NCBI RefSeq assembly: GCF_006345805.1
Contig: NW_021823582.1
Coordinates: forward strand, 1-21,686
From: Octopus sinensis
Lineage: Eukaryota
DNA length: 21,686 bases
Reading direction: 5' to 3'
The notes under the pieces: model-generated
Told to the model about the DNA's origin: nothing
The model's database searches: none
Seen by the model: only the letters and a program-made list of their open reading frames with translations
Program-made: the position numbers and the translations under genes
Part shown: in pieces, positions 3,429 to 17,071 of the stretch
Numbering within the stretch: the stretch's first letter is position 1
Layout of the letters: the number at the start of each line of letters is the position of its first letter

Positions 3429-3521
3429 ATGTCTTTCTTTTTCTGTCTTAATCTCTCATTTGCAGACCCATGAAAATCGAACTTCTACTAACTACTTTCC
3501 CTATGTATCTGTATATATATA

Positions 3522-4282
3522 TATCCGTAATAATGAAGGGTGAAATTAATTAATTTGGAATAATTATCAATTACACCAAGTAGTCTTCGGCATGTAAAAG
3601 CCTCATTCGAAGGAAAATTTAAGTAATACTAAGCAATAAAGGGTTTAGCAACGAATTGCCTTACCACATACCGAATTTAGAAATAGCAGTCAAAGAGTTA
3701 TAGCTATTTCTTCTTCTACTAAAAAGGGAGATCTCAGTAAAAACAGCATTGGAAGGCAGACACAAACAGGTAAGAGAGAATGAATTGACGGCAATCTATC
3801 ATACATTTTTAAGTTATCTACGGACGTACGTTTCGAAATCAAGTTTTTAGGAAAGCATAAGAATTAAATATTAAATATTAAATAATTCTATCTTACCGAA
3901 ACTTCTTTTCTCTTCAGCGTAGAATACTATAATCATAAATGATTATATATTGAATTTTGAGATACTAGAAGGCACCACTCAACTCAGTATCAGAGCGAGC
4001 TAGAATCCGCAACTAGTATCACCGAATTCAATTTGTGAATGAAACGATTGTGTCACCAGCCCCTTCCCACCCGCGTGTAGCCAAAACAAGATGCTGGTCA
4101 TCTACTGAGATAAATATGGTTATCCGTAATAATGAAGGGTGAAATAATTAATTTGGAATAATTATCAATTACACCAAGTAGTCTTCGGCATGTAAAAGCC
4201 TCATTCGAGGAAAATTTAAGTAATACTAAGCAATAAAGGGTTTAGCAACGAATTGTCTTACCACATACCGAATTTAGAAATA
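3522..4282 (-). mobile_element. Non-coding hammerhead-bearing retroelement (retrozyme / Penelope pLTR-like): 599-bp monomer plus ~163-bp terminal direct repeat
   Basis: 3522-3685 repeats at 4121-4282 (two 1-bp indels, one substitution). (TA)n on both flanks, hammerhead inside, no long ORF. Confidence 0.8.
3817..3923 (-). ncRNA. Type I hammerhead ribozyme with extended stem II
   Basis: Minus strand: UCUACG-CUGAAGA-[76-nt stem II: GAAA/UUUC, AAGUUU/AAACUU, AGAAUUA/UAAUUCU]-GAAAC-GUAC-GUC-CGUAGA. Perfect 6-bp stem I, all core nucleotides present, predicted cleavage between 3823 and 3822. Confidence 0.88.
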
Positions 4283-4490
4283 TATATATATATATATATA
4301 TATCATCGAATCGTAGCCGCTCTCTCCTTCTCTCTCCCCCTCTCTTTCTGTCTCACTCTCTCTCTTTCTCACTCTGTATCTATACATATATGTATGTATG
4401 TGTACATATATGTACGTATGCATGTGTATATATATAAATATATGTATATGTAAGCATATATGTATGCATGTGTGTTTGTATATATATATA

Positions 4491-4965: not shown

Positions 4966-5539
4966 TTCCTTCACAAATAGCCATGTTTATACAATTAAAT
5001 TCAAATCTATTTGATATTTCATATTTCCTCCCTTAATAATCTCTCTAAACATTATATTATAATCCATTGTACACAACTTGTATTTGCAATTTATTACAAA
5101 TTACATATTTCAGTTTTATTGTCTTCATTCTAAATTAAATAAAGAATTGGCAGAGGGGAAAAGCAAAGACATACATTTAATGTTAGAACAACCCATGATA
5201 CGCCTTTCCATGTGGCAAAGTGAAAGTAGACAATGTTTAAATACAGGAAAGCACTTGCGCTTTCAGCCCCGATTTTTTCCCTTTTGTGTTCTACTTTCTA
5301 TGTTTTACCTACGAATTAATTGCAGACACGGAAGGAATTCGTATTTTGCTAACGACACATCACATAACGACACATTGACATCACCTAAATAATATATTGA
5401 TATATATCTGCGTGTGTATATTTAAATATATCTACAGGGCGTTCAGGTTAACTTTGACAACACTTCATGCCTCCATTTTTCAGAAACAGTTTTATATTTA
5501 TTGGTGAAGAATCAACGGCGTTGGAGAGCATAAATATTG

Positions 5540-6116
5540 TTTTCACATTTTGGCATGAAACCAGCAATTTTTGAGGTAGGAGTAAGTCTCTTACATCGAC
5601 CCCAGTGCGTAACTGGTACTTATTTAATCGACCTCGAAAGGATGAAAGGCAAAGTCGACCTCGGCGCAATTTGAACTCAGAACGTAGCGGCAGACGAAAT
5701 ACCTATTTCTTTACTACCCACAAGGGGCTAAACACAGAGAAGCCATGCAAGGACAGACAAACGGATTAAGTCGATTATATCGACCCCAGTGCGTAACTGG
5801 TACTTATTTAATCGACCCCGAAAGGATGAAAGGCAAAGTCGAACTCGGCGGAATTTGAACTCAGAACGTAACGGCAGACGAAATACCTATTTCTTTACAA
5901 CCCACAAGGGGCTACACACAGAGGGACAAACAAGGACAGACAAACGGATTAAGTCGATTATATCGACCCCAGTGCATAACAGGTACTTATTTAATCAACC
6001 GCGAAAGGATGAAAGGCAAAGTCGACCTCGGCGGAATTTGAACTCAGAACGTAGCGGCAGACGACATACCGCTAAGTAATTCGCCCGACTAGCTAATGAT
6101 TCTGCCAGCTCGCCGC
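5540..6116 (-). mobile_element. tRNA-derived SINE family B, tandem trimer (183-184-bp period)
   Basis: TCGACCCCAGTGC at 5596, 5780 and 5963. Minus head GCGGCGAGCTGGCAGAA, B box GAGTTCAAATTCC, core GCCTTTCATCCTTTCGGGGTCGAT. Confidence 0.9.
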
Positions 6117-6129
6117 TTATCTATCTCTT

Positions 6130-6475
6130 TTACCGGACCATTAACTTGCAGGGTCGTAAACAAACCGGCTCTGTTGTCAGGTAATGGTGGAATAACAAAT
6201 ACAAATACAAACACAAAGACTTACACCCACACTTATATACCACGGGCTTCCACACAGGGGTCGATATAAACGACTTAATCTGTTTGTCTGTCCTTGTTTG
6301 TCCCCTCTGTCTGTAGCCCCTTGTGGGCTGTAAAGAAACAGGTAAAAGAGACAGATAGAATAGGTACCAGACTACGAAATAGGTACTACAGTCGATTTGC
6401 TCAACTAAGAAAAGAAAACCTTCAAAGCAGTGCCACAACATGGCTGCAGTCCAATGACTAACGAAAGTACAAGAT
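6130..6475. mobile_element. Mosaic of SINE fragments: family A body (-, ~6130-6257), family B segment (+, 6257-6344), family A 3' end (+, ~6360-6475)
   Basis: Matches to 2715-2780, to 16912-16999, and to the reverse complement of 2600-2700 (CATGGCTGCAGTCCAATGACT). Confidence 0.7.
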
Positions 6476-7001
6476 GAACGATATACTAGCGCACATGATA
6501 GTTGAATAGTAGATGTACAGTAGTATTTAAGTATGCTAATATTTACGAGACAAATACGCATTAATATGGTATACGATAAATGTGTTAATATTGATAAATA
6601 CATATACATATTAATGTGTTAATATAACGGCGCGATGGCGGTGTGCAAGACAAGCAAATTAACACTTACGTATCAGTCTGTTGGCTTTCTTACCTACAAA
6701 CGCATTAAAATAAGCAGCTAGAATACCATCGCAGCTAATGTGATAGTATGGTGGTATTTAAATATCTAAAAAGAAATATTAATGTATGAAGAAACAAAAA
6801 GAACGAGTGTTAGTATTCATATATACATAATCACGTGAATGCCTTAATATGGAAAGTGTGCTGCTATCAAAATATACAAAGAAATTTGAATGCGTTAAAG
6901 GCTAGAGTATGGCGGTGTCATAGATAGAAAGACATATAACTCATACCGGATGCCCAATAAATCATTTTAATTTTTGATAAAAATTTGATAAAGAATCTAA
7001 T

Positions 7002-7757
7002 TGTGTGTGAGTGTGTGTGTGTTTGTTTGTTTTGTGTGTTAGCCTTGTTTGTTTTGTCTGTTTGTATGTGTGTGGATGTAAGTGTGTGAGCGTGTGTGCA
7101 GACGTACGTGTGTCGTATGTATGGTGTGTCGTCTGTATGGAGTGTCGTCTGTACGTATGAATGTGTGTGTTTGTGTTTGGCGTTTCTTTGTAGTTTTGTG
7201 GTTTCATATTTTGTTTTCTCTTTTCTTTCTTTCTTTTTTGTGTGTGTCTATGTGTGTATGTACGGTATGCATATGTGTGTGTGTATATGTGTGTGTTATG
7301 TGTGTGCTGCTTTACTTCTGAGTGTGTAAGTCGTTGATTTATATTTATATATATATACACACACACATACATACATATACATATAAGTGAGTGTGTGCGT
7401 GTATATGCATATATATATATACATATACATTTAACAACAAATAATTTTATACGACTATATATATATATATATGCGTGTGTGCATGTGTATGTATATTTGT
7501 GTATATACAGGCACATACATAAACGCACTTATTCAAATATATACACCCGTACGCGTGTATGAGACTTCATTATATATATATTTTCTCTTCCTTTAATGTC
7601 ATGTACCTACTCGTATGTGTATATATATATTATATATTATATATGTCTGTGTACAGACATGTGTATAATCTGTGTGTGTAGTCATACACACACACATATA
7701 TATATATATAAATATATACATCATACATATGCATATATATATATAGATATAGATATA

Positions 7758-7810
<53 letters not shown>
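7002..7810. repeat. Degenerate (TG)n/(TA)n low-complexity tract
   Basis: Directly visible. Confidence 0.85.
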
Positions 7811-7812
<2 letters not shown>

Positions 7813-7961
7813 TATTTTTTTGTATATATTTCATATTTTCAAGAAAACAATTTCTTCTGTGATTTATGATTTTGTCTTTTCATTTTATTCATTATTTTTG
7901 GGGTATTTTTGTTTTGCTTTTTGTTCTTTTCAGAATTTCTTTTACTCACCTACAAACATTT

Positions 7962-8399
7962 ACCTCCTCCTCTTCTTCTACTTCTTCTTTTTGCTCTTCT
8001 TCTTCTTGCTCGTCTTCTTCTCTTTCGTCTTCTTCTTCCTTTTCTTTTTCTTCTATTTCTTCTTCTTCCTTTTCTTCTTCTTCTTCTTGCTCTTGTTCTT
8101 GTTCTTGTTCTTCTTCTCTTCTTCTTCTTCATCTTATATTCCTTCTTTTTCTTGCTCTTCTTCTTCTTGCTCGTCTTCTTCTTCTCTTTCGTCTTCTTCT
8201 TCCTTTTCTTCTTCTCCTTCTTGCTCTTGTTCTTGTTCTTCTTCTTCTTATTATTATTATTATTATAATTCTTCTTCTTCTTGCTCGTCTTCTTCTTGCT
8301 CTTCTCCTTCATCATCATCTTTTTCATTTCCTTCATCTTCTTCTTCTTTCTTCCCTCTACTCCTCTTCTTTTTCCCTCTAATTATCATCCTAAACCTTC

Positions 8400-8432
<33 letters not shown>
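7962..8432. repeat. Imperfect (CTT)n polypyrimidine tract with (TTA)n and (CT)n
   Basis: Directly visible. The poly-S/F/L/K/R ORFs are its translations. Confidence 0.92.
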
Positions 8433-8629
8433 ACTCCCTCTCTTATTTTCCGTCTCTTTTTTCTTCATTCTTCATTTATATACGACATTTACCTCCCACT
8501 GCTATCATTTTTTTTTCTTCATCAAAATCTTCTTCTGTCGCAAAATGCGCGTAGAAGTATGTACATGTGGTTAAATGTTGAGCGGGGCATGGTAGGCGGG
8601 ATTAGGTGTGAATTTACACTAATAAATAA

Positions 8630-8661
<32 letters not shown>

Positions 8662-8863
8662 CTATGAAGTTTGACATGTGAATATATATATACTTATACA
8701 TATATATGTATATATACGCATGTGTATCTATATATAAATATATATATATATATGTATATAGATAGACAGATAAATCAATAGTGTATTCATATATTATACA
8801 GATTATTATATTTGAATGCACAATTGGCTTGTTGTTCCTCTGTGTCTTTCTCATATATATAAA

Positions 8864-8898
<35 letters not shown>

Positions 8899-8902
8899 TA
8901 TA
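8630..8902. repeat. (TG)n/(TA)n low-complexity tract
   Basis: Directly visible. Confidence 0.85.
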
Positions 8903-8976
8903 TGGAGGGGGGAGGCAGAGAGGAACAATAAGAGGCACAATATAGTGAAAGTTGTTTTCTGTAAAATTGTTGCTGA

Positions 8977-9230
8977 CTATTTCCGGTTTCGTTTCGGACT
9001 CAGAAATCTCATGAAATATTCTTCTTTTGCCTTCCAGAGGAGGTCGTTCTCTTCATTTATTTTATGAAGAGAGATAATTGTAACTCCCCCTTGTGCATAG
9101 GATCTCTACATGGTATGAGTCTAAGTGCGGGATGTTTTATTTGATGTCTTTGCACATTTACACGGTTGGTTAGTTTCGCTTTTGTTTCCCCAATATAATG
9201 TTCGTTGCATCGTGGCCATGTGATACAATG
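8977..9230 (-). pseudogene. Penelope-like element GIY-YIG endonuclease, C-terminal fragment (frameshifted)
   Basis: HCITWPRCNEHYIGETKAKLTNRVNVQRHQIK (YIGET motif, conserved Arg). After a frameshift: KINEENDLLWKAKEEYFMRFLSPKRNRK* (catalytic Glu helix and PxxN end). Confidence 0.8.
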
Positions 9231-10063
9231 TCCTGACACAAAACCGTACGGCTCCCCTTCTTGGTTAATTCTCTTCCAAATTAATTTTTCAGCATCTTTC
9301 ATGATCTGCTCCACTAATTTGATACGTCCGAAATTATTCTCTCTGAGAGAGTTAATTGCAGTGTTACAAGGGTAAACATTGCCTTTACCCTAGTGACGCG
9401 TCCCCAAAGTCCATCCCTCCTCGCCGTGGTTGGGACACTGAAAACGGGTAGTGTCAAAGCTATGCCGTCGGGAACTTCGGTTCCTGGTAGGGCCACCCAA
9501 GGCGGATTGGTCTGACACCGAGTGGTATTAGGGCCATGACCCGGCAGACGGGGCTCAGGTGAAAATCCTCGGAGTGTCTGTTTCGGCAACCGGCGGTTCC
9601 TCGGTCGTTCTGTCCCTGCGTCTGCGGACAATCTGCGGCAAACAGGATGTCTTTACATGCGGGATTGTTGGGGACCGCTTGTGAAATTCATATTCCCACA
9701 AAACTTCTTCCACTGCCATGGTTCGAGATGCCTCGAGGGTGGTGGAAGAAGCCGACTCAACCCGCCCAGGGTGAATGTCGCCACAAGTACAAATACAAGT
9801 AAGTTACCCTAGTGACAGATCCTTAGAATGCTACAACGCCGATCGTCGGGTGTGACATCTTTCTGTACGGGAACTATGCCATATCCTACTCTGTTAGGTA
9901 TTTTAAGCCTTTCAGCACCAATTCCTGACGGTCCAAGAGCTTCCCCTACATTCATACTTTGAACTGCTTTCTCGATCATACGGTCGTCTTCTGGAATGGC
10001 TGGTTCCTCTGTTGGGTCCAAGTTGGATAGACATTCGTTCTTCCATGTATTATCCGCATTGAA
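9231..10063 (-). pseudogene. RTE-clade LINE ORF fragment (start of RT domain), decayed and interrupted by the 9398-9803 insertion
   Basis: IEKAVQSMNVGEALGPSGIGAERLK (KAPGP-type motif), ICH*GKG across the TSD, ENNFGRIKLVEQIMK (NYRGIKL motif), and PYGFVSG (QFGF motif), all in the expected order. Confidence 0.85.
9398..9803 (+). mobile_element. 406-bp non-autonomous RTE-derived retroposon with 13-bp TSD
   Basis: TTACCCTAGTGAC at 9385-9397 and 9804-9816. 3' tail ACAAGT-ACAAAT-ACAAGT-AAG. GCTATGCC...TAGGGCCACCCAAGGCGGA resembles the RTE/BovB 5' UTR motif. GC-rich. Confidence 0.85.
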
Positions 10064-10071
10064 AAAAGTGT

Positions 10072-10461
10072 TTCAGATTTGTTTCAAATTTTGGCACTAG
10101 GCTAACAATTTCGGGAGCAAGGGTAAGTCGATTACATCGACCCCAGAATACAACTGGTACTTATTTTATCAACCCCGAAAGGATCGACCTCGCAGAATTG
10201 GAACTCGGATCATAAAGACGGACGAAATACCTATTTCTTTACTACCCACAAGGGGCTAAACACAGAGGGGACAAACAAGGACAGACAAACGGATTAAGTC
10301 GATTATATCGACGCCAGTGCGTAACTGGTACTATTTAATCGAGCCCGAAAGGATGAAAGGCAAAGTCGACCTCGGCGGAATTTGAGATCAGAACGTAACG
10401 GCAGACGAAATACGGCTACTCATTTTGTCCGATGTGTTAATGATTCTACCAGCTCGCTGCC
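10072..10461 (-). mobile_element. SINE family B, tandem dimer
   Basis: Two units (AAGTCGATTA at ~10125 and ~10296), head CCAGCTCGCTGCC ending at 10461, tail TTTTGGCA as at ~5548. Confidence 0.88.
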
Positions 10462-10670
10462 GTAAGAGCCTTTCATGTTAGCATCGATGCCGCTTTCTTT
10501 TCCAAATTACCAAATGCAAGAAAGTCATTATCATAATCACAAAGTGCAACTGTACCCGTTGCTTCTCTCCCACGACATCTCAATTTCCTCTCATACACAA
10601 CCTTGCAATCTTGGACATGTTTGTCACCAGACCTCAAGCTGGAAAAAAAAGATGTCAACAAACCTCTTAC

Positions 10671-10833
10671 GTTAACAAAGCTCTCACGTTGCGAACTAAA
10701 AATGTCGCCGAATTTCCCTTCAAGCTACGTGGAATAATTTTCTGCACAACGCCACTTCTCTGAATATTTCCAGGATTATCTCTTCGCATCTCTGATTGCT
10801 GTCTCATTGCTGTTTCCACGAGGATAAAGCCGC
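10671..10833 (-). other. Candidate exon (coding status unknown)
   Basis: Non-repetitive. Acceptor TTATTTTCTTTTCTTGTCATGCATTGACAG. Possible donors GTAAGA (10670) or GTGAGA (10687). Confidence 0.3.
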
Positions 10834-10909
10834 CTGTCAATGCATGACAAGAAAAGAAAATAAGAATAACAACAGCTAAAATCCGTTTAATCATCTACAT
10901 TACTGGGAG

Positions 10910-11811
10910 GTGTGTGTATGTGTGTGTGCGTGTATATGTGTGTGTGTGGCATGTATTCCTGCGAAGATGTGTATGTATATAAATATATTTTTACATACAT
11001 GTATATACATATAATATATATATATATTATATATATATATATATATTATATATTATATATTATATATATATATATTATATATATATAATACAATATATAT
11101 ATATCATATATATATTATATATACATAATATATTTATATTTATATATTATATATAGATAGATAGATAGATAGATACATACATACATATAGATATAGATAT
11201 ATACATATATACATATATATACATATACATATACATATATACATATATACACACATATACATACATATATATACATATACACACACACATATATATATAT
11301 ACACATATATAGACAAATGCCTGTGATACATGTTTATGTATACATATATTTATGTGTCCAGGTATGTATCTGTGCAGACAGGTGTGTGTATGTATACGTG
11401 TGAGCGTGTGGGGGGGAGGCTCCCGTCTGCGTGCATATGTGCCTATGTGTAATGTGCAATGTGCACGTGTACGTGTGTGTGTGTGCGCTTGTATGTGTTT
11501 CCTTGGTGTGTGTTTAATCTGCCGAATCGATCTGTCTGAGATTTATCAAGGAGACCATGTCAATTATCCATCAAAGAATTTCTGGTCAAAGAATTCGCAG
11601 ATAAATACATGTACAGACATATATGTTGGTACCTGTGTATACAGGCACACATATATATGCATATATATATATATATATAGTATATATATATATATATTAT
11701 ATATATATGCATATATATATATATATATATATATGCATATATATATATATATGCATGTATAAATATTATATATACATACATATATATATATGTGTGTGTA
11801 TATATATGTAT
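10910..11811. repeat. (TG)/(TA)/(GATA)/(TACA) low-complexity tract with a short unique island (~11500-11610)
   Basis: Directly visible. Confidence 0.85.
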
Positions 11812-11942
11812 ATACGTTTTCGCAAAAAGTTTTTATAGAAATGTATATATCTATATATGTTTATATATATGTATGTGCATATATATAATATATATATATA
11901 TATATTATATATATATATATAGATAGATAGATAGATAGATAG

Positions 11943-11994
<52 letters not shown>

Positions 11995-12045
11995 GATATA
12001 CATATTTCTATATATATACATTTATATAAAAAAATTTGCGAAAGC

Positions 12046-12088
<43 letters not shown>

Positions 12089-12114
12089 TACGATAGATAG
12101 ACAGATAGATATAC

Positions 12115-12189
<75 letters not shown>

Positions 12190-12307
12190 GATATACATAT
12201 TTCTATATATACATTTATATAAAAAAATTTGCGAAAGCGTATATATATATATTATATATATATTATATATATATATATAATATATATATAGATAGATAGA
12301 TAGATAT

Positions 12308-12370
<63 letters not shown>

Positions 12371-12475
12371 CATACATACATATTTCTATATATATACATT
12401 TATATAAAAAAATTTGCGAAAGCGTATATATATATATATATACATATATACGATAGATAGACAGATAGATATACC

Positions 12476-12553
<78 letters not shown>
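11812..12553. repeat. Composite tandem repeat (~190 bp: unique anchor + (TA)n + (GATA)n) x3, plus an inverted anchor copy
   Basis: TTTGCGAAAGCGTATA at 12035, 12228 and 12413. Diverged reverse complement TATACGTTTTCGCAAAAA at ~11811. Confidence 0.88.
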
Positions 12554-12554
<1 letters not shown>

Positions 12555-13182
12555 GCACACAAATTTATGCTTTAATGCTTTGATGAATCTATGCTTTCTC
12601 TTCCTCTCTCTCTCTCTCTCTCTATCTCTGCAATATATACATGAATACCATATATATATAGACAGGCATATATATACAGATGCACACACATACACACATA
12701 TTTATTCATGTTTAGGAGTATACGTATCACTATATGAAAGCACCCAACCATTCATACGCGCGCGCACATACAAATACTTACACCCGTACGCAGAATCAAT
12801 CACACGAATATATTCAGTTACATATACAGGTATGTATGTTTGTGTGTGTCTTTGTGCGTGTGTGTGTATAGATGAATGTATGTATATGCACGTATGTATA
12901 TATATTTATATACTTATATACACTTCGATAATTACGCAAAAAATACTATTTGTTTAATATATCGAATATGAAAATGATATATACATGAATACCATACACA
13001 GACATATACACACACACTCACGTACATATAAACATATATTTACAGATACACAAACACACACACAAGTACACACAAAGTACACATACACTCGTTCCCACAT
13101 GTATTCATGTATGCAGGTATGCAAGTATGTATATATGTGTGAGTGTATGTATTTGTGTGTCTAAATCTCAGCAAAAATAATA

Positions 13183-15707
13183 CGTTGTGCTTTCGAATAT
13201 GAGAATATGTGTGTGCGAATGTGTTGTTCTTGCGAATATGGGAATATGTGTGTGCGAATGTGTTGTGCTTGCGAATATGAGAATATGTGTGTGCGAATGT
13301 GTTGTGCTTGCGAATATGAGAATATGTGTGTGCGAATGTGTTGTGCTTTCAAATATGAGAATATGTGTGTGCGAATGTGTTGTTCTTGCGAATATGGGAA
13401 TATGTGTGTGCGAATGTGTTGTGCTTTCGAATATGAGAATATGTGTGTGCGAATGTGTTGTGCTTGCGAATATGAGAATATGTGTGTGCGAATGTGTTGT
13501 GCTTTCGAATATGAGAATATGTGTGTGCGAATGTGTTGTGCTTGCGAATATGAGAATGTGTGTGTGCGAATGTGTTGTGCTTTCGAATATGAGAATATGT
13601 GTGTGCGAATGTGTTGTGCTTTCGAATATGAGAATATGTGTGTGCGAATGTGTTGTGCTTTCGAATATGAGAATATGTGTGTGCGAATGTGTTGTGCTTG
13701 CGAATATGAGAATGTGTGTGTGCGAATGTGTTGTGCTTTCGAATATGAGAATATTGTGTGTGCGAATGTGGTTGTGCTTTCGAATATGAGAATATGTGTG
13801 TTCGAATGTTTTGTGCTTTCGATAGAGAATATGTGTGTGCGAATGTGTTGTGCTTGTGAATATCAGAATATTGTGTGTCGAAATGTGTTGTGCTTGCGAA
13901 TATGAGAATATGTGTGTGCGAATGTTTTGTGCTTGCGAATATGAGTAGTGTGTTCGAATGTTTTGTGGCTTTCGAATATGAGAATATGTGTGTGCGAATG
14001 TGTTGTGCTTGCGAATATGAGAATATGTGTGTGCGAATGTGTTGTGCTTGGCGAATATGAGAATATTGTGTTTCGAATGTGTTGTGCTTGCGAATATGAG
14101 AATATGTGTGTGCGAATGTGTTGTGCTTGTGATATCAGAATATGTGTGTGCGAATGTGTTGTGCTTGCGAATATGAGAATATGTTGTGCGAATGTGTTGT
14201 GCTTGCGAATATGAGAATATGTGTGTTCGAATGTTTTGTGCTTCGAATATGAGAATATGTGTGTGCGAATGTGTTGTGCTTGCGAATATGAGAATATGTG
14301 TGTGCGAATGTGTTTGTCTTTGCGAATATGAGAATATGTGTGCTCGAATATGTTGTGCTTGCGAATATGAGATATGTGTGTGCGAATGTGTTGTGCTTGT
14401 GAATATCAGAATAGTGTGTGCGAATGTGTTGTGCTTGCGAATATGAGAATATGTGTGTGCGAATGTGTTGTGCTTGCGAATATGAGAATATGTGTGTTCG
14501 AATGTTTTGTGCTTTCGAATATGAGAATATGTGTGTGCGAATGTGTTGTGCTTTCGAATATGAGGATATGTGTGTGCGAATGTGTTGTGCTTGCGAATAT
14601 GAGAATATGTGTGTGCGAATGTGTTGTGCTTGCGAATATGAGAATATGTGTGTGCGAATGTGTTGTGCTTGTGAATATCAGAATATGTGTGTGCGAATGT
14701 GTTGTGCTTGCGAATATGAGAATATGTGTGTGCGAATGTGTTGTGCTTGCGAATATGAGAATATGTGTGTTCGAATGTTTTGTGCTTTCGAATATGAGAA
14801 TATGTGTGTGCGAATGTGTTGTGCTTGCGAATATGAGAATATGTGTGTGCGAATGTGTTGTGCTTGCGAATATGAGAATATGTGTGTTCGAATGTGTTGT
14901 GCTTGCGAATATGAGAATATGTGTGTGCGAATGTGTTGTGCTTTCGAATATGAGAATATGTGTGTTCGAATGTGTTGTGCTTGCGAATATGAGAATATGT
15001 GTGTGCGAATGTGTTGTGCTTGCGAATATGAGGATATGTGTGTTCGAATGTGTTGTGCTTGCGAATATGAGAATATGTGTGTGCGAATGTGTTGTGCTTT
15101 CGAATATGAGAATATGTGTGTGCGAATGTGTTGTGCTTGCGAATATGAGGATATGTGTGTGCGAATGTGTTGTGCTTTCGAATATGAGAATATGTTTGTT
15201 CGAATGTGTTGTGCTTGCGAATAGAGAATATGTGTGTGCGAATGTGTTGTGCTTGCGAATATGAGGATTGTGTGTTCGAATGTGTTGTGGCTTGCGAATA
15301 GAGAACATAAGTGTGGGCGAATGTGTTGTGCTTTCGAATATGAGAATATTGTGTGCGAATGTGTTGTGCTTGCGAATATGAGAATGTGTGTGTGCGAATA
15401 TGTTGTGCTTTCGAATATGAGAATATGTGTGTGCGAATGTGTTGTGCTTGCGAACATCAGATTATGTGTATGCGAATGTGCTGTGATTGCGAATATCAGA
15501 ATATGTGTATGCGAATGTGTTGTTCTTATAAATATGCGAATATGTGTGTACGAACATGTGCTTGCAGATATGAGAATATGTGTGCTAACATCTCGTGCTT
15601 GCGAATATGAGAATATGTGTATGCGAATGTAGTGTACTTGCGAATATGAGAATATGTGTGTGCGAATTTTATTTACTTGCGAATTTGAGAATATGATTTT
15701 TGCGAAT
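13183..15707. repeat. 39-bp minisatellite GCGAATATGAGAATATGTGTGTGCGAATGTGTTGTGCTT, roughly 64 copies
   Basis: 13-aa periodicity in the ORF track (CEYENMCVRMCCA). The array decays after ~15460. Confidence 0.97.
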
Positions 15708-15709
15708 TG

Positions 15710-16325
15710 TTTTTGTGTATGTGTATCTTTATATATTTGACAGATATTTGTGTCTGTGTGCTTCTGTGTTTGTATGTTAGTTTGTCTCAATTTGCGTGTG
15801 TCTGTGTGTGTATTTGTAGTTTGTTTTTTGTTTGTATGCATTTGTGTATGTATCATTATTTGTGTCTGTGTGTGAAAGAGCGAAGAATATGTGGATGTGA
15901 GCATAAATAAATAAATATCCATGTGTATGTGTATGTCTGTATATATATATATATATGTGTGTGTCTGTGTTTATGTGAGTGTGTAATCATATATATGTGT
16001 GTGTATACATATAGATACGTTTATATGTATACACATATGTATAAATTGATATGTACATATATATATGTGTGTGCGTGTGTATATATATTACGGTACATTT
16101 ATATTATATAAAGCATGATATTTGATATGTTTTCTGTAATTTACTAATACGGTATATGTATACACACACACTCACACACACATACAGACATGCACATACA
16201 CACACACACACACACATATACACAAACACATATATATATGCATTCATTATATTCGTATATGTACAGATATGTGTAGGTATGTACACCTATAAGTGCATAC
16301 GTGTGTCTGCGTATGTATATATATC
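15710..16325. repeat. Degenerate TG/TA/CA low-complexity tract
   Basis: Directly visible. Confidence 0.8.
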
Positions 16326-16766: not shown

Positions 16767-17071
16767 GCGGCGAGCTGGCAGAAACGTTAGAACGCCGGGC
16801 GAAATACTTAACGGTATTTCGTCTGCGTTACGTTGTGAGTTCAAATTCCGCCGAGGTCGACTTTGCCTTTCATCCTTTCGGGGTCGATAAATTAAGTACC
16901 AGTTACGCACTGGGGTCGATGTAATCGACTTAATACCTATGTCTGTCCTTGTTTGTCCCCTCTGTGTTTAGCCCCTTGTGGGTAATAAAGAAATAGGTAT
17001 TTCGTCTGCCGCTACGTTCTGAGTTCAAATGCTGCCGAGGTCGATGAATTAAGTACTAATTACGCACTGGT
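16767..17071 (+). mobile_element. SINE family B: head, one unit, and an internally deleted second unit
   Basis: GCGGCGAGCTGGCAGAAACG head, GAGTTCAAATTCC B box. GGTATTTCGTCTGC recurs at ~16813 and ~16996. Confidence 0.9.

Follow-up and report, generated by a model that had tools for sequence, protein, structure and literature searches.

Two Fixed Start Sites in a Noncoding Hammerhead Repeat of Octopus sinensis Suggest Probable Insertion into (TA)n in trans by a Penelope-Like Enzyme

Introduction

Non-LTR retrozymes of animals have family consensus lengths of 51–972 bp in the available text of Li, Clavereau and Pollet (2026, bioRxiv 10.64898/2026.07.22.740005), where their arrays are ascribed to local amplification and cleavage is reported for only one out of nine predicted Xenopus retrozyme dimers. 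Circular retrozyme RNA has been shown in coral, mussel, and axolotl (PMC7229834; Li et al. 2026); Penelope-like elements (PLEs) were named as candidate mobilizers of retrozymes (Cervera and de la Pena 2020, PMC7229834). For the PLEs, it is described that a purified enzyme extends each of the two strands of the DNA and begins synthesis at a pair of sites inside the RNA, which delimit the tail, and that uncleaved RNA is its main in vitro substrate (PMC11167929). PLE tails measure 30–40 bp and a Cys-rich linker before the endonuclease is a mark of Neptune and Nematis (PMC8557442). A tail at one end only has already been described qualitatively for PLEs (PMC8557442, PMC3846280).

A literature search covering main texts, for the most part outside subscription journals, returned no cephalopod retrozyme and no PLE-type insertion ends of a retrozyme, and neither "hammerhead" nor "ribozyme" occurs in the available text of an octopus repeat annotation (PMC13282606). 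Here, a hammerhead-bearing element within a stretch of 21,686 nt from Octopus sinensis (contig NW_021823582.1 of assembly GCF_006345805.1, hereafter the window) is compared with its relatives throughout the source genome. Judged from its sequence, the locus is a 5′-truncated copy of a hammerhead-bearing non-LTR retrozyme, a known class of element.

Materials and Methods

Unit positions (q) were calculated as the window position minus 3521. The RNA sense was taken as the hammerhead strand, and low q values lie on the RNA 3′ side. A total of 181 arms in 114 loci of the source genome were mapped. The loci were chosen in three ways: the best DNA matches, the first places matching the ribozyme pattern, and all places matching q128–153 within the first 109 Mb of contig C1. 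Locus L085, apparently a duplicate, was left out of the pooled end and pairing counts, the haplotype and cut-site counts, and the wrap counts, and was kept in the comparisons of arm-end scatter and sister-arm divergence. The search for a partner element consisted of four protein or family searches of the source genome plus 40 longer stretches, and recovered several C-terminal GIY-YIG families and none with an N-terminal endonuclease (Naiad-type).

Results

Structure of the window copy

A first-pass annotation of the window, made from the letters alone, had described a direct repeat of about 163 bp at a 599-bp period with three differences and (TA)n on both sides. The repeat was recovered as positions 3522–3685 (164 nt) and 4121–4282 (162 nt) with a period of 599 and three differences, consisting of two single-base gaps and one substitution, and TA runs border the element on either side (table 1). 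A motif scan of the whole window returned a single match, a type I hammerhead that is complete, reads on the minus strand, and, as had been claimed, lies outside the direct repeat. Its stem I is formed by CUACG (3922–3918) pairing with CGUAG (3822–3818; 5 bp), the core contains CUGAAGA (3917–3911) and GAAA (3834–3831), and the predicted cut follows GUC. Helix II comprises 76 nt and helix III is capped by a palindromic GUAC. The predicted hammerhead fold has an energy of −18.3 compared with a free MFE of −19.4, a cost of 1.1 kcal/mol, and the 599-nt unit folded as a circle reaches an MFE of −151.8 compared with −119.3 ± 5.6 in 40 shuffles (z = −5.8). Rfam gave three matches in one search, none of which is a hammerhead, and no hammerhead among the 150 matches listed of 176 in another; the motif rests on the motif scan and the fold.

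The unit has a low GC content (34%) and no LTR features were seen. The claimed absence of a long ORF was confirmed in that no stop-to-stop frame of at least 70 aa lies inside the element, the sole exception being a 77-aa frame that extends into the TA flank. We also agree that the window copy, with one ribozyme, could not excise a monomer alone. Two other repeats were observed in the window. At positions 5579–6070, a dispersed repeat that looks SINE-like forms a 184-bp tandem (2.7 copies) and is present again in inverted orientation at about 10190–10330 and 16826–17044, and positions 13184–15711 contain a 39-bp minisatellite (65 copies, 90% matches).

Table 1. Features of the hammerhead-bearing element in the window.
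Feature	Position	Strand	Basis or remark
Whole insertion: single arm, 1.27 units, RNA-3′ end at site A	3522..4282	-	Second unit 5′-truncated at unit position 164
Complete 599-nt unit, predicted to be highly paired as a circle	3522..4120	-	Repeat period, folding, tandem period in arrays of the source genome
Partial second unit (formerly "terminal redundancy")	4121..4282	-	Repeat alignment
Type I hammerhead motif, predicted cut 3823/3822	3818..3922	-	Motif scan, fold, variants at tolerated positions
104-nt "tail" between start sites A (3522) and B (3626)	3522..3625	-	End mapping
Structured 3′ module of ~200 nt, likely RT-recognition element	3522..3726	-	Alignment between related families, compensatory changes in four helices
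Left (TA)n target remnant	3512..3521	.	Sequence
Right (TA)n target remnant	4283..4303	.	Sequence

A young multicopy family

A DNA search of the source genome with the element identified 1,379 candidate places. The 40 places that were scored gave 192 matches, and among the 150 listed, apart from the window's own, identities range from 94% to 98%; the matches listed lie mostly in tandem arrays. A 26-mer from the ribozyme has 946 exact occurrences (0 for the reversed control) and a 26-mer from q128–153 has 2,179. Exact internal tandem junctions number 1,560 genome-wide, compared with none for the reversed controls, and the longest arrays in the mapped loci contain about 13–14 units. A local duplication at a single-copy locus is rejected by the 1,379 candidate places and the 946 exact 26-mers. 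Contigs of four sequencing runs (organisms A and B, four studies; RNA or DNA) cover most of the unit and little of its flanks.

The copies form a young, dispersed, noncoding multicopy mobile family. The first-pass annotation had proposed a nonautonomous, hammerhead-bearing, TA-targeting family and had suggested a search of the source genome for tandem multimers and TA flanks, and both are present there. Its remark that the monomer exceeds those of animal retrozymes does not hold, since 599 nt falls inside the consensus range of Li et al. (2026) as given in the available text. At every core and stem position that was scored, 178 out of 246 units agree with the window copy, and the commonest ribozyme variants affect tolerated positions (N7, and an A-to-G substitution that leaves a U-G pair in stem I). 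In 28 loci that were not picked by the ribozyme pattern, 0/336 core sites compared with 156/16,061 sites are variant, a weak sign of core conservation.

Two fixed RNA-3′ ends and their pairing

The RNA-3′ end of the arms lies either at q1 (site A, window 3522) or at q96–111, mostly q105 (site B, window 3626), and the 5′ ends are scattered over the unit. Genome-wide, at least 1,085 exact TA-flanked ends were found at B and 701 at A, with none in the reversed controls, and a TA run is present at 125 out of 127 outer ends compared with 10% of background 20-mers. Variable circular permutations had been expected of the family. Random circular permutation is ruled out by the fixed A and B ends, and since only the 5′ end varies, the "terminal redundancy" of the first-pass annotation is a 5′-truncated second unit and not a terminal repeat. 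A motif, AAT-(G/A)A-GGGT, is located 10–20 nt inside both A and B. At window positions 3532–3541 and 3635–3644 this start-site motif contains AGGGT, and in several related families it reads TTAGGG at B, which resembles the telomere repeat and may be a coincidence.

In a tail-anchored sample of 47 insertions, 28 have a pair of inverted arms that meet at their 5′ ends. The other 19 have a single arm, which ends at B in 16 and at A in 3; the window copy, a single arm with an A end, belongs to the rarer single-arm type. Altogether, 63 two-arm insertions were mapped. In seven of them one end lies at neither site, and in the remaining 56 each end is at A or at B. The 56 scorable insertions comprise 54 A+B and two B+B pairs and no A+A pair (P = 2e-14). 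Pairing by end coordinates alone, using the first 100 B and the first 77 A ends listed and partly representing the same insertions, gave 41 A+B pairs out of 42, one B+B, and no A+A. Inverted insertions therefore carry the tail at one end only in 54/56 and 41/42 cases. Such insertions, in which two inverted arms carry one end of each kind, are a feature that the first-pass annotation had not raised. The two arms overlap by 1–12 nt at 32 of the 63 junctions, show no overlap at 4, and are separated by small inserts or gaps at 27. Twin priming of the L1 type on one linear RNA was considered and rejected: it predicts A arms that end near B, and the A-arm ends are scattered.

The template of reverse transcription

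Many arms exceed a single unit, with 89 out of 181 wrapping past the unit end back into the unit and 65 out of 181 crossing at least two cut sites. No accumulation of 5′ ends at the cut site, which would have marked linear cleaved templates, was found in the mapped arms (1/75 within unit positions 292–306; 3/76 within 296–306, P = 0.16); an excess of ends at unit positions 290–330 (11/76, P = 0.014) refers to an interval picked after inspection. Neither is there an excess of indels at the cut site, and the long arms are therefore unlikely to derive from linear monomers with template jumps. Ahead of the first cut site (q301), arms terminate at a rate of 0.55 per 100 nt, six times the rate of 0.088 per 100 nt beyond it, and this excess of short-arm ends may reflect palindromic joining spots or a second, linear class of template.

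In the 22 insertions with at least three full units, 127 differences from the majority of the family are fixed, 218 variants are singletons (in part due to assembly error), and 23 are confined to subsets of units. Private variants are fixed in all units in 7 of the 22 insertions, and units diverge by about 1.9 nt within an insertion compared with 10 between insertions. Some of the subset variants are common to neighboring units (L101 and L106), indicating that local amplification also occurs, and some look like homopolymer errors. A comparison of unit order between sister arms, intended to distinguish a circle from a multimer, yielded few informative variants, which likewise resemble homopolymer errors. 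The homogeneity within arrays fits copying round a monomer circle, and it also fits the copying of homogeneous arrays with some local amplification.

Uncleaved linear multimers explain the arrays equally well. The same PLE-driven insertion could have used a multimer that was transcribed from a pre-existing array and stayed linear and uncleaved, with no circle involved in the window copy, and we regard this as a possible, rather doubtful alternative. It would account for arms that cross cut sites without scars and for the presence of shared master haplotypes (an identical haplotype is common to different insertions in 4 out of 231 pairs), and it agrees with the dominance of unprocessed PLE RNA as a substrate in vitro (PMC11167929) and with the poor monomer cleavage that a weak palindromic helix III predicts (PMC4209133, available text). 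However, unit number cannot rise by linear copying, the star-like arrays, in which private variants are fixed in every unit, call for a monomer bottleneck at some stage, and the weakly supported core conservation together with the fully replaced stem I in the second family described below suggests that the ribozyme is used. We lean slightly toward a circle as the template for reverse transcription.

Sister arms and the number of primings

Sister arms differ by a median of 0.34%, compared with 2.1% to other arms (38 out of 45 pairs scorable), and have 49 rare variants in common, compared with a mean of 2.6 and a maximum of 17 in 300 shuffles. In a few pairs (L067, L112), the sister arms diverge more than usual. 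The end points of sister arms correlate (rho = 0.58, 26 pairs). Because shared master haplotypes exist, the identity of sister arms could also stem from two RNAs of one source, and for this reason we can only infer copying from the same molecule.

Instead of two primings, one cDNA (or an antisense RNA) could have folded back at a palindrome and primed itself to give the inverted arm, the second end being defined by endonuclease resolution. Fold-back synthesis predicts what is seen in many short pairs, where both arms terminate at nearly the same point, and is compatible with the near-identity of sister arms and with the clustering of junctions at palindromic spots (7 out of 75 ends at unit position 227); self-priming has also been proposed for the inverted repeats of PLEs (PMC3846280). 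We nevertheless consider it improbable. Among the 31 A+B pairs with a tail-less B arm, 12 contain neither arm within the other and three are disjoint, which favors two primings unless central deletions followed, an extra step that fold-back would demand. In addition, B is the usual start of single-arm copies (16/19) and hence a primary start site. Priming of both target ends on one RNA is the reading that we prefer, with some reserve.

Related families and a shared 3′ module

A sister family with a 562-nt unit (2,537 candidate places) has a hammerhead of its own, in which stem I is entirely different, and its copies start at q1 and at q88–99. In 30 loci of this family, 15 out of 16 distinct two-arm insertions are A+B and none are A+A or B+B, the query having begun at A, which biases against finding B+B. 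Copies were also observed at L003:560–988, L257, and L278, one of them directly beside an insertion of the first family. The two families align clearly only over the 3′ 170–200 nt (69% identity). The module in this region contains four helices with compensatory changes: across six sequences, the 37 predicted pairs are 94.5% paired, five of them with double changes, and the covariation score was reached by 0 out of 500 shuffles, the sequences being related and the structure being derived from the same alignment. These data give moderate support to the predicted structure of the ~200-nt module, and the module is likely an element recognized by the reverse transcriptase. Further related families were met as bystanders in the fetched loci, and other type I hammerhead motifs, in further repeat families, were observed at L150:9264 (-), L147:2327 (+), and L142:980 (+).

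Penelope-like elements in the source genome

The source genome contains several RT plus GIY-YIG families with a Cys-rich linker before the endonuclease (Pfam on one). Two young PLE families (L336 on contig C8 and L338 on contig C1) carry intact RT/GIY-YIG ORFs of 775–781 aa with an upstream frame, and pseudo-LTRs (pLTRs) that end in TA with an optional tail of ~30 nt. The young PLE with the 775-aa ORF (RT and GIY-YIG motifs) is comparable in age to the retrozyme (1.7% pairwise) and has a minimal hammerhead-like motif, read by eye. It ends in TA with or without the ~30-nt tail, and one of each was present in five out of five inverted insertions seen. No match to the retrozyme 3′ module occurs in the pLTRs of either young family, these pLTRs align with neither retrozyme unit, and no module was found downstream of the other GIY-YIG families sampled (the best 150 of 5,000–16,000 candidates per protein search).

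Loci with both the module and PLE coding sequence number 10 out of 202, and the eight that were viewed (L079 and L319 lie outside this set) are separate, TA-bounded insertions. The first-pass annotation had suggested looking for copies that adjoin an RT/GIY-YIG ORF, and no examined copy is joined to a Penelope ORF. That the units are solo pLTRs of an autonomous PLE, with satellites formed by local unequal crossover (the route of Li et al. 2026, in whose available text Xenopus retrozymes match pLTRs), would agree with the PLE-type tail, the inversions, and the variants common to some neighboring units, but is highly improbable given that 89 out of 181 arms continue past the unit end into the unit again, that the two arms of an insertion are frequently both multimers whose lengths correlate, and that PLE coding sequence occurs at so few module-bearing loci, separated by a TA run in those viewed.

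In three loci (L105:2100–2290, L112:1640–1750, and L248:2460–2620), the retrozyme is nested in the TA tract at PLE 3′ ends, consistent with a shared target. The window itself contains a degenerate Penelope-type GIY-YIG fragment at 9060–9389 (-), which gave 146 matches among the best 150 of 6,016 candidates in the source genome; this family is old and shows no sign of the retrozyme module. Pfam returned nothing on five window frames near 9060–10072.

Discussion

The directly observed multimeric arms, fixed ends, and TA flanks indicate that a PLE-type enzyme very probably inserts the retrozyme as multimers. Insertion into (TA)n in trans by a Penelope-like RT/GIY-YIG endonuclease is likely for this noncoding hammerhead repeat with two fixed starts. 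In the proposed mechanism, transcription of tandem arrays would yield the hammerhead strand, from which pairs of ribozymes would release monomers, and these would circularize. The enzyme, whose identity we infer, would bind the ~200-nt structured module and cut a TA tract. Each target end would then prime cDNA on the same RNA, one at A and one at B, 104 nt away, matching the observed one-of-each pairing and the identity of sister arms, and both cDNAs would run on through successive units. Joining of the two cDNAs head to head at short microhomologies or palindromes would give an inverted two-arm insertion, and where a single arm survives, its 5′ end would be joined to TA, as in the window copy.

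A more specific and much more tentative proposal is that a dimeric Penelope-type enzyme with two active sites copies one circular RNA, with A and B as dedicated sites and rolling-circle synthesis until the cDNAs meet, and that the module is a portable signal, unrelated to the pLTR of the enzyme and common to a superfamily of parasitic RNAs. If true, this dual-site rolling-circle reading would explain the tails and inverted repeats of PLEs as well as the entry of animal ribozyme circles into the genome.

The near-strict rule of one A and one B end is a constraint on any model of PLE integration. The insertion scars described here carry a PLE signature, which bears on the enzyme that mobilizes animal retrozymes and on whether multimers arrive as such or grow in place, and for a noncoding hammerhead repeat they are available in counts large enough for testing. 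A short RNA with two mapped starts, together with the intact ORFs of two young PLEs from this genome, offers a direct in vitro test system for trans-mobilization and rolling-circle reverse transcription.

The window family resembles EN+ PLEs of the Neptune type (PMC8557442, PMC3846280, and PMC11167929, available text) in its 5′ truncation, partial tandems, inverted 5′-truncated copy, one-ended tail, (TA)n bias, and a hammerhead upstream of two start sites. Unlike these PLEs, the retrozyme has no ORF, its tail measures 104 nt (87–98 in the second family) compared with 30–40, and it has no sequence match to the pLTRs sampled. It carries a full type I hammerhead, whereas the young PLE of the same genome has a minimal motif, and, unlike an autonomous PLE or an attached pLTR, the unit contains no RT plus GIY-YIG ORF and is not fused to PLE coding sequence in the loci viewed. 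With the animal non-LTR retrozymes, as described in the available text of PMC7229834 and Li et al. (2026), it shares a noncoding low-GC tandem repeat with one type I hammerhead per unit, dispersal as monomers to multimers, no LTR features seen, and co-occurring PLEs; the helix II of 76 nt differs from those of the published animal retrozymes. Mobilization by PLEs is argued in those accounts from co-occurrence and pLTR similarity and here from insertion ends, and compared with their available text, insertion ends, TA targeting, tails, and inverted arms are described only for the present family. The window family is a new retrozyme family for which the evidence on the mode of insertion is unusually clear.
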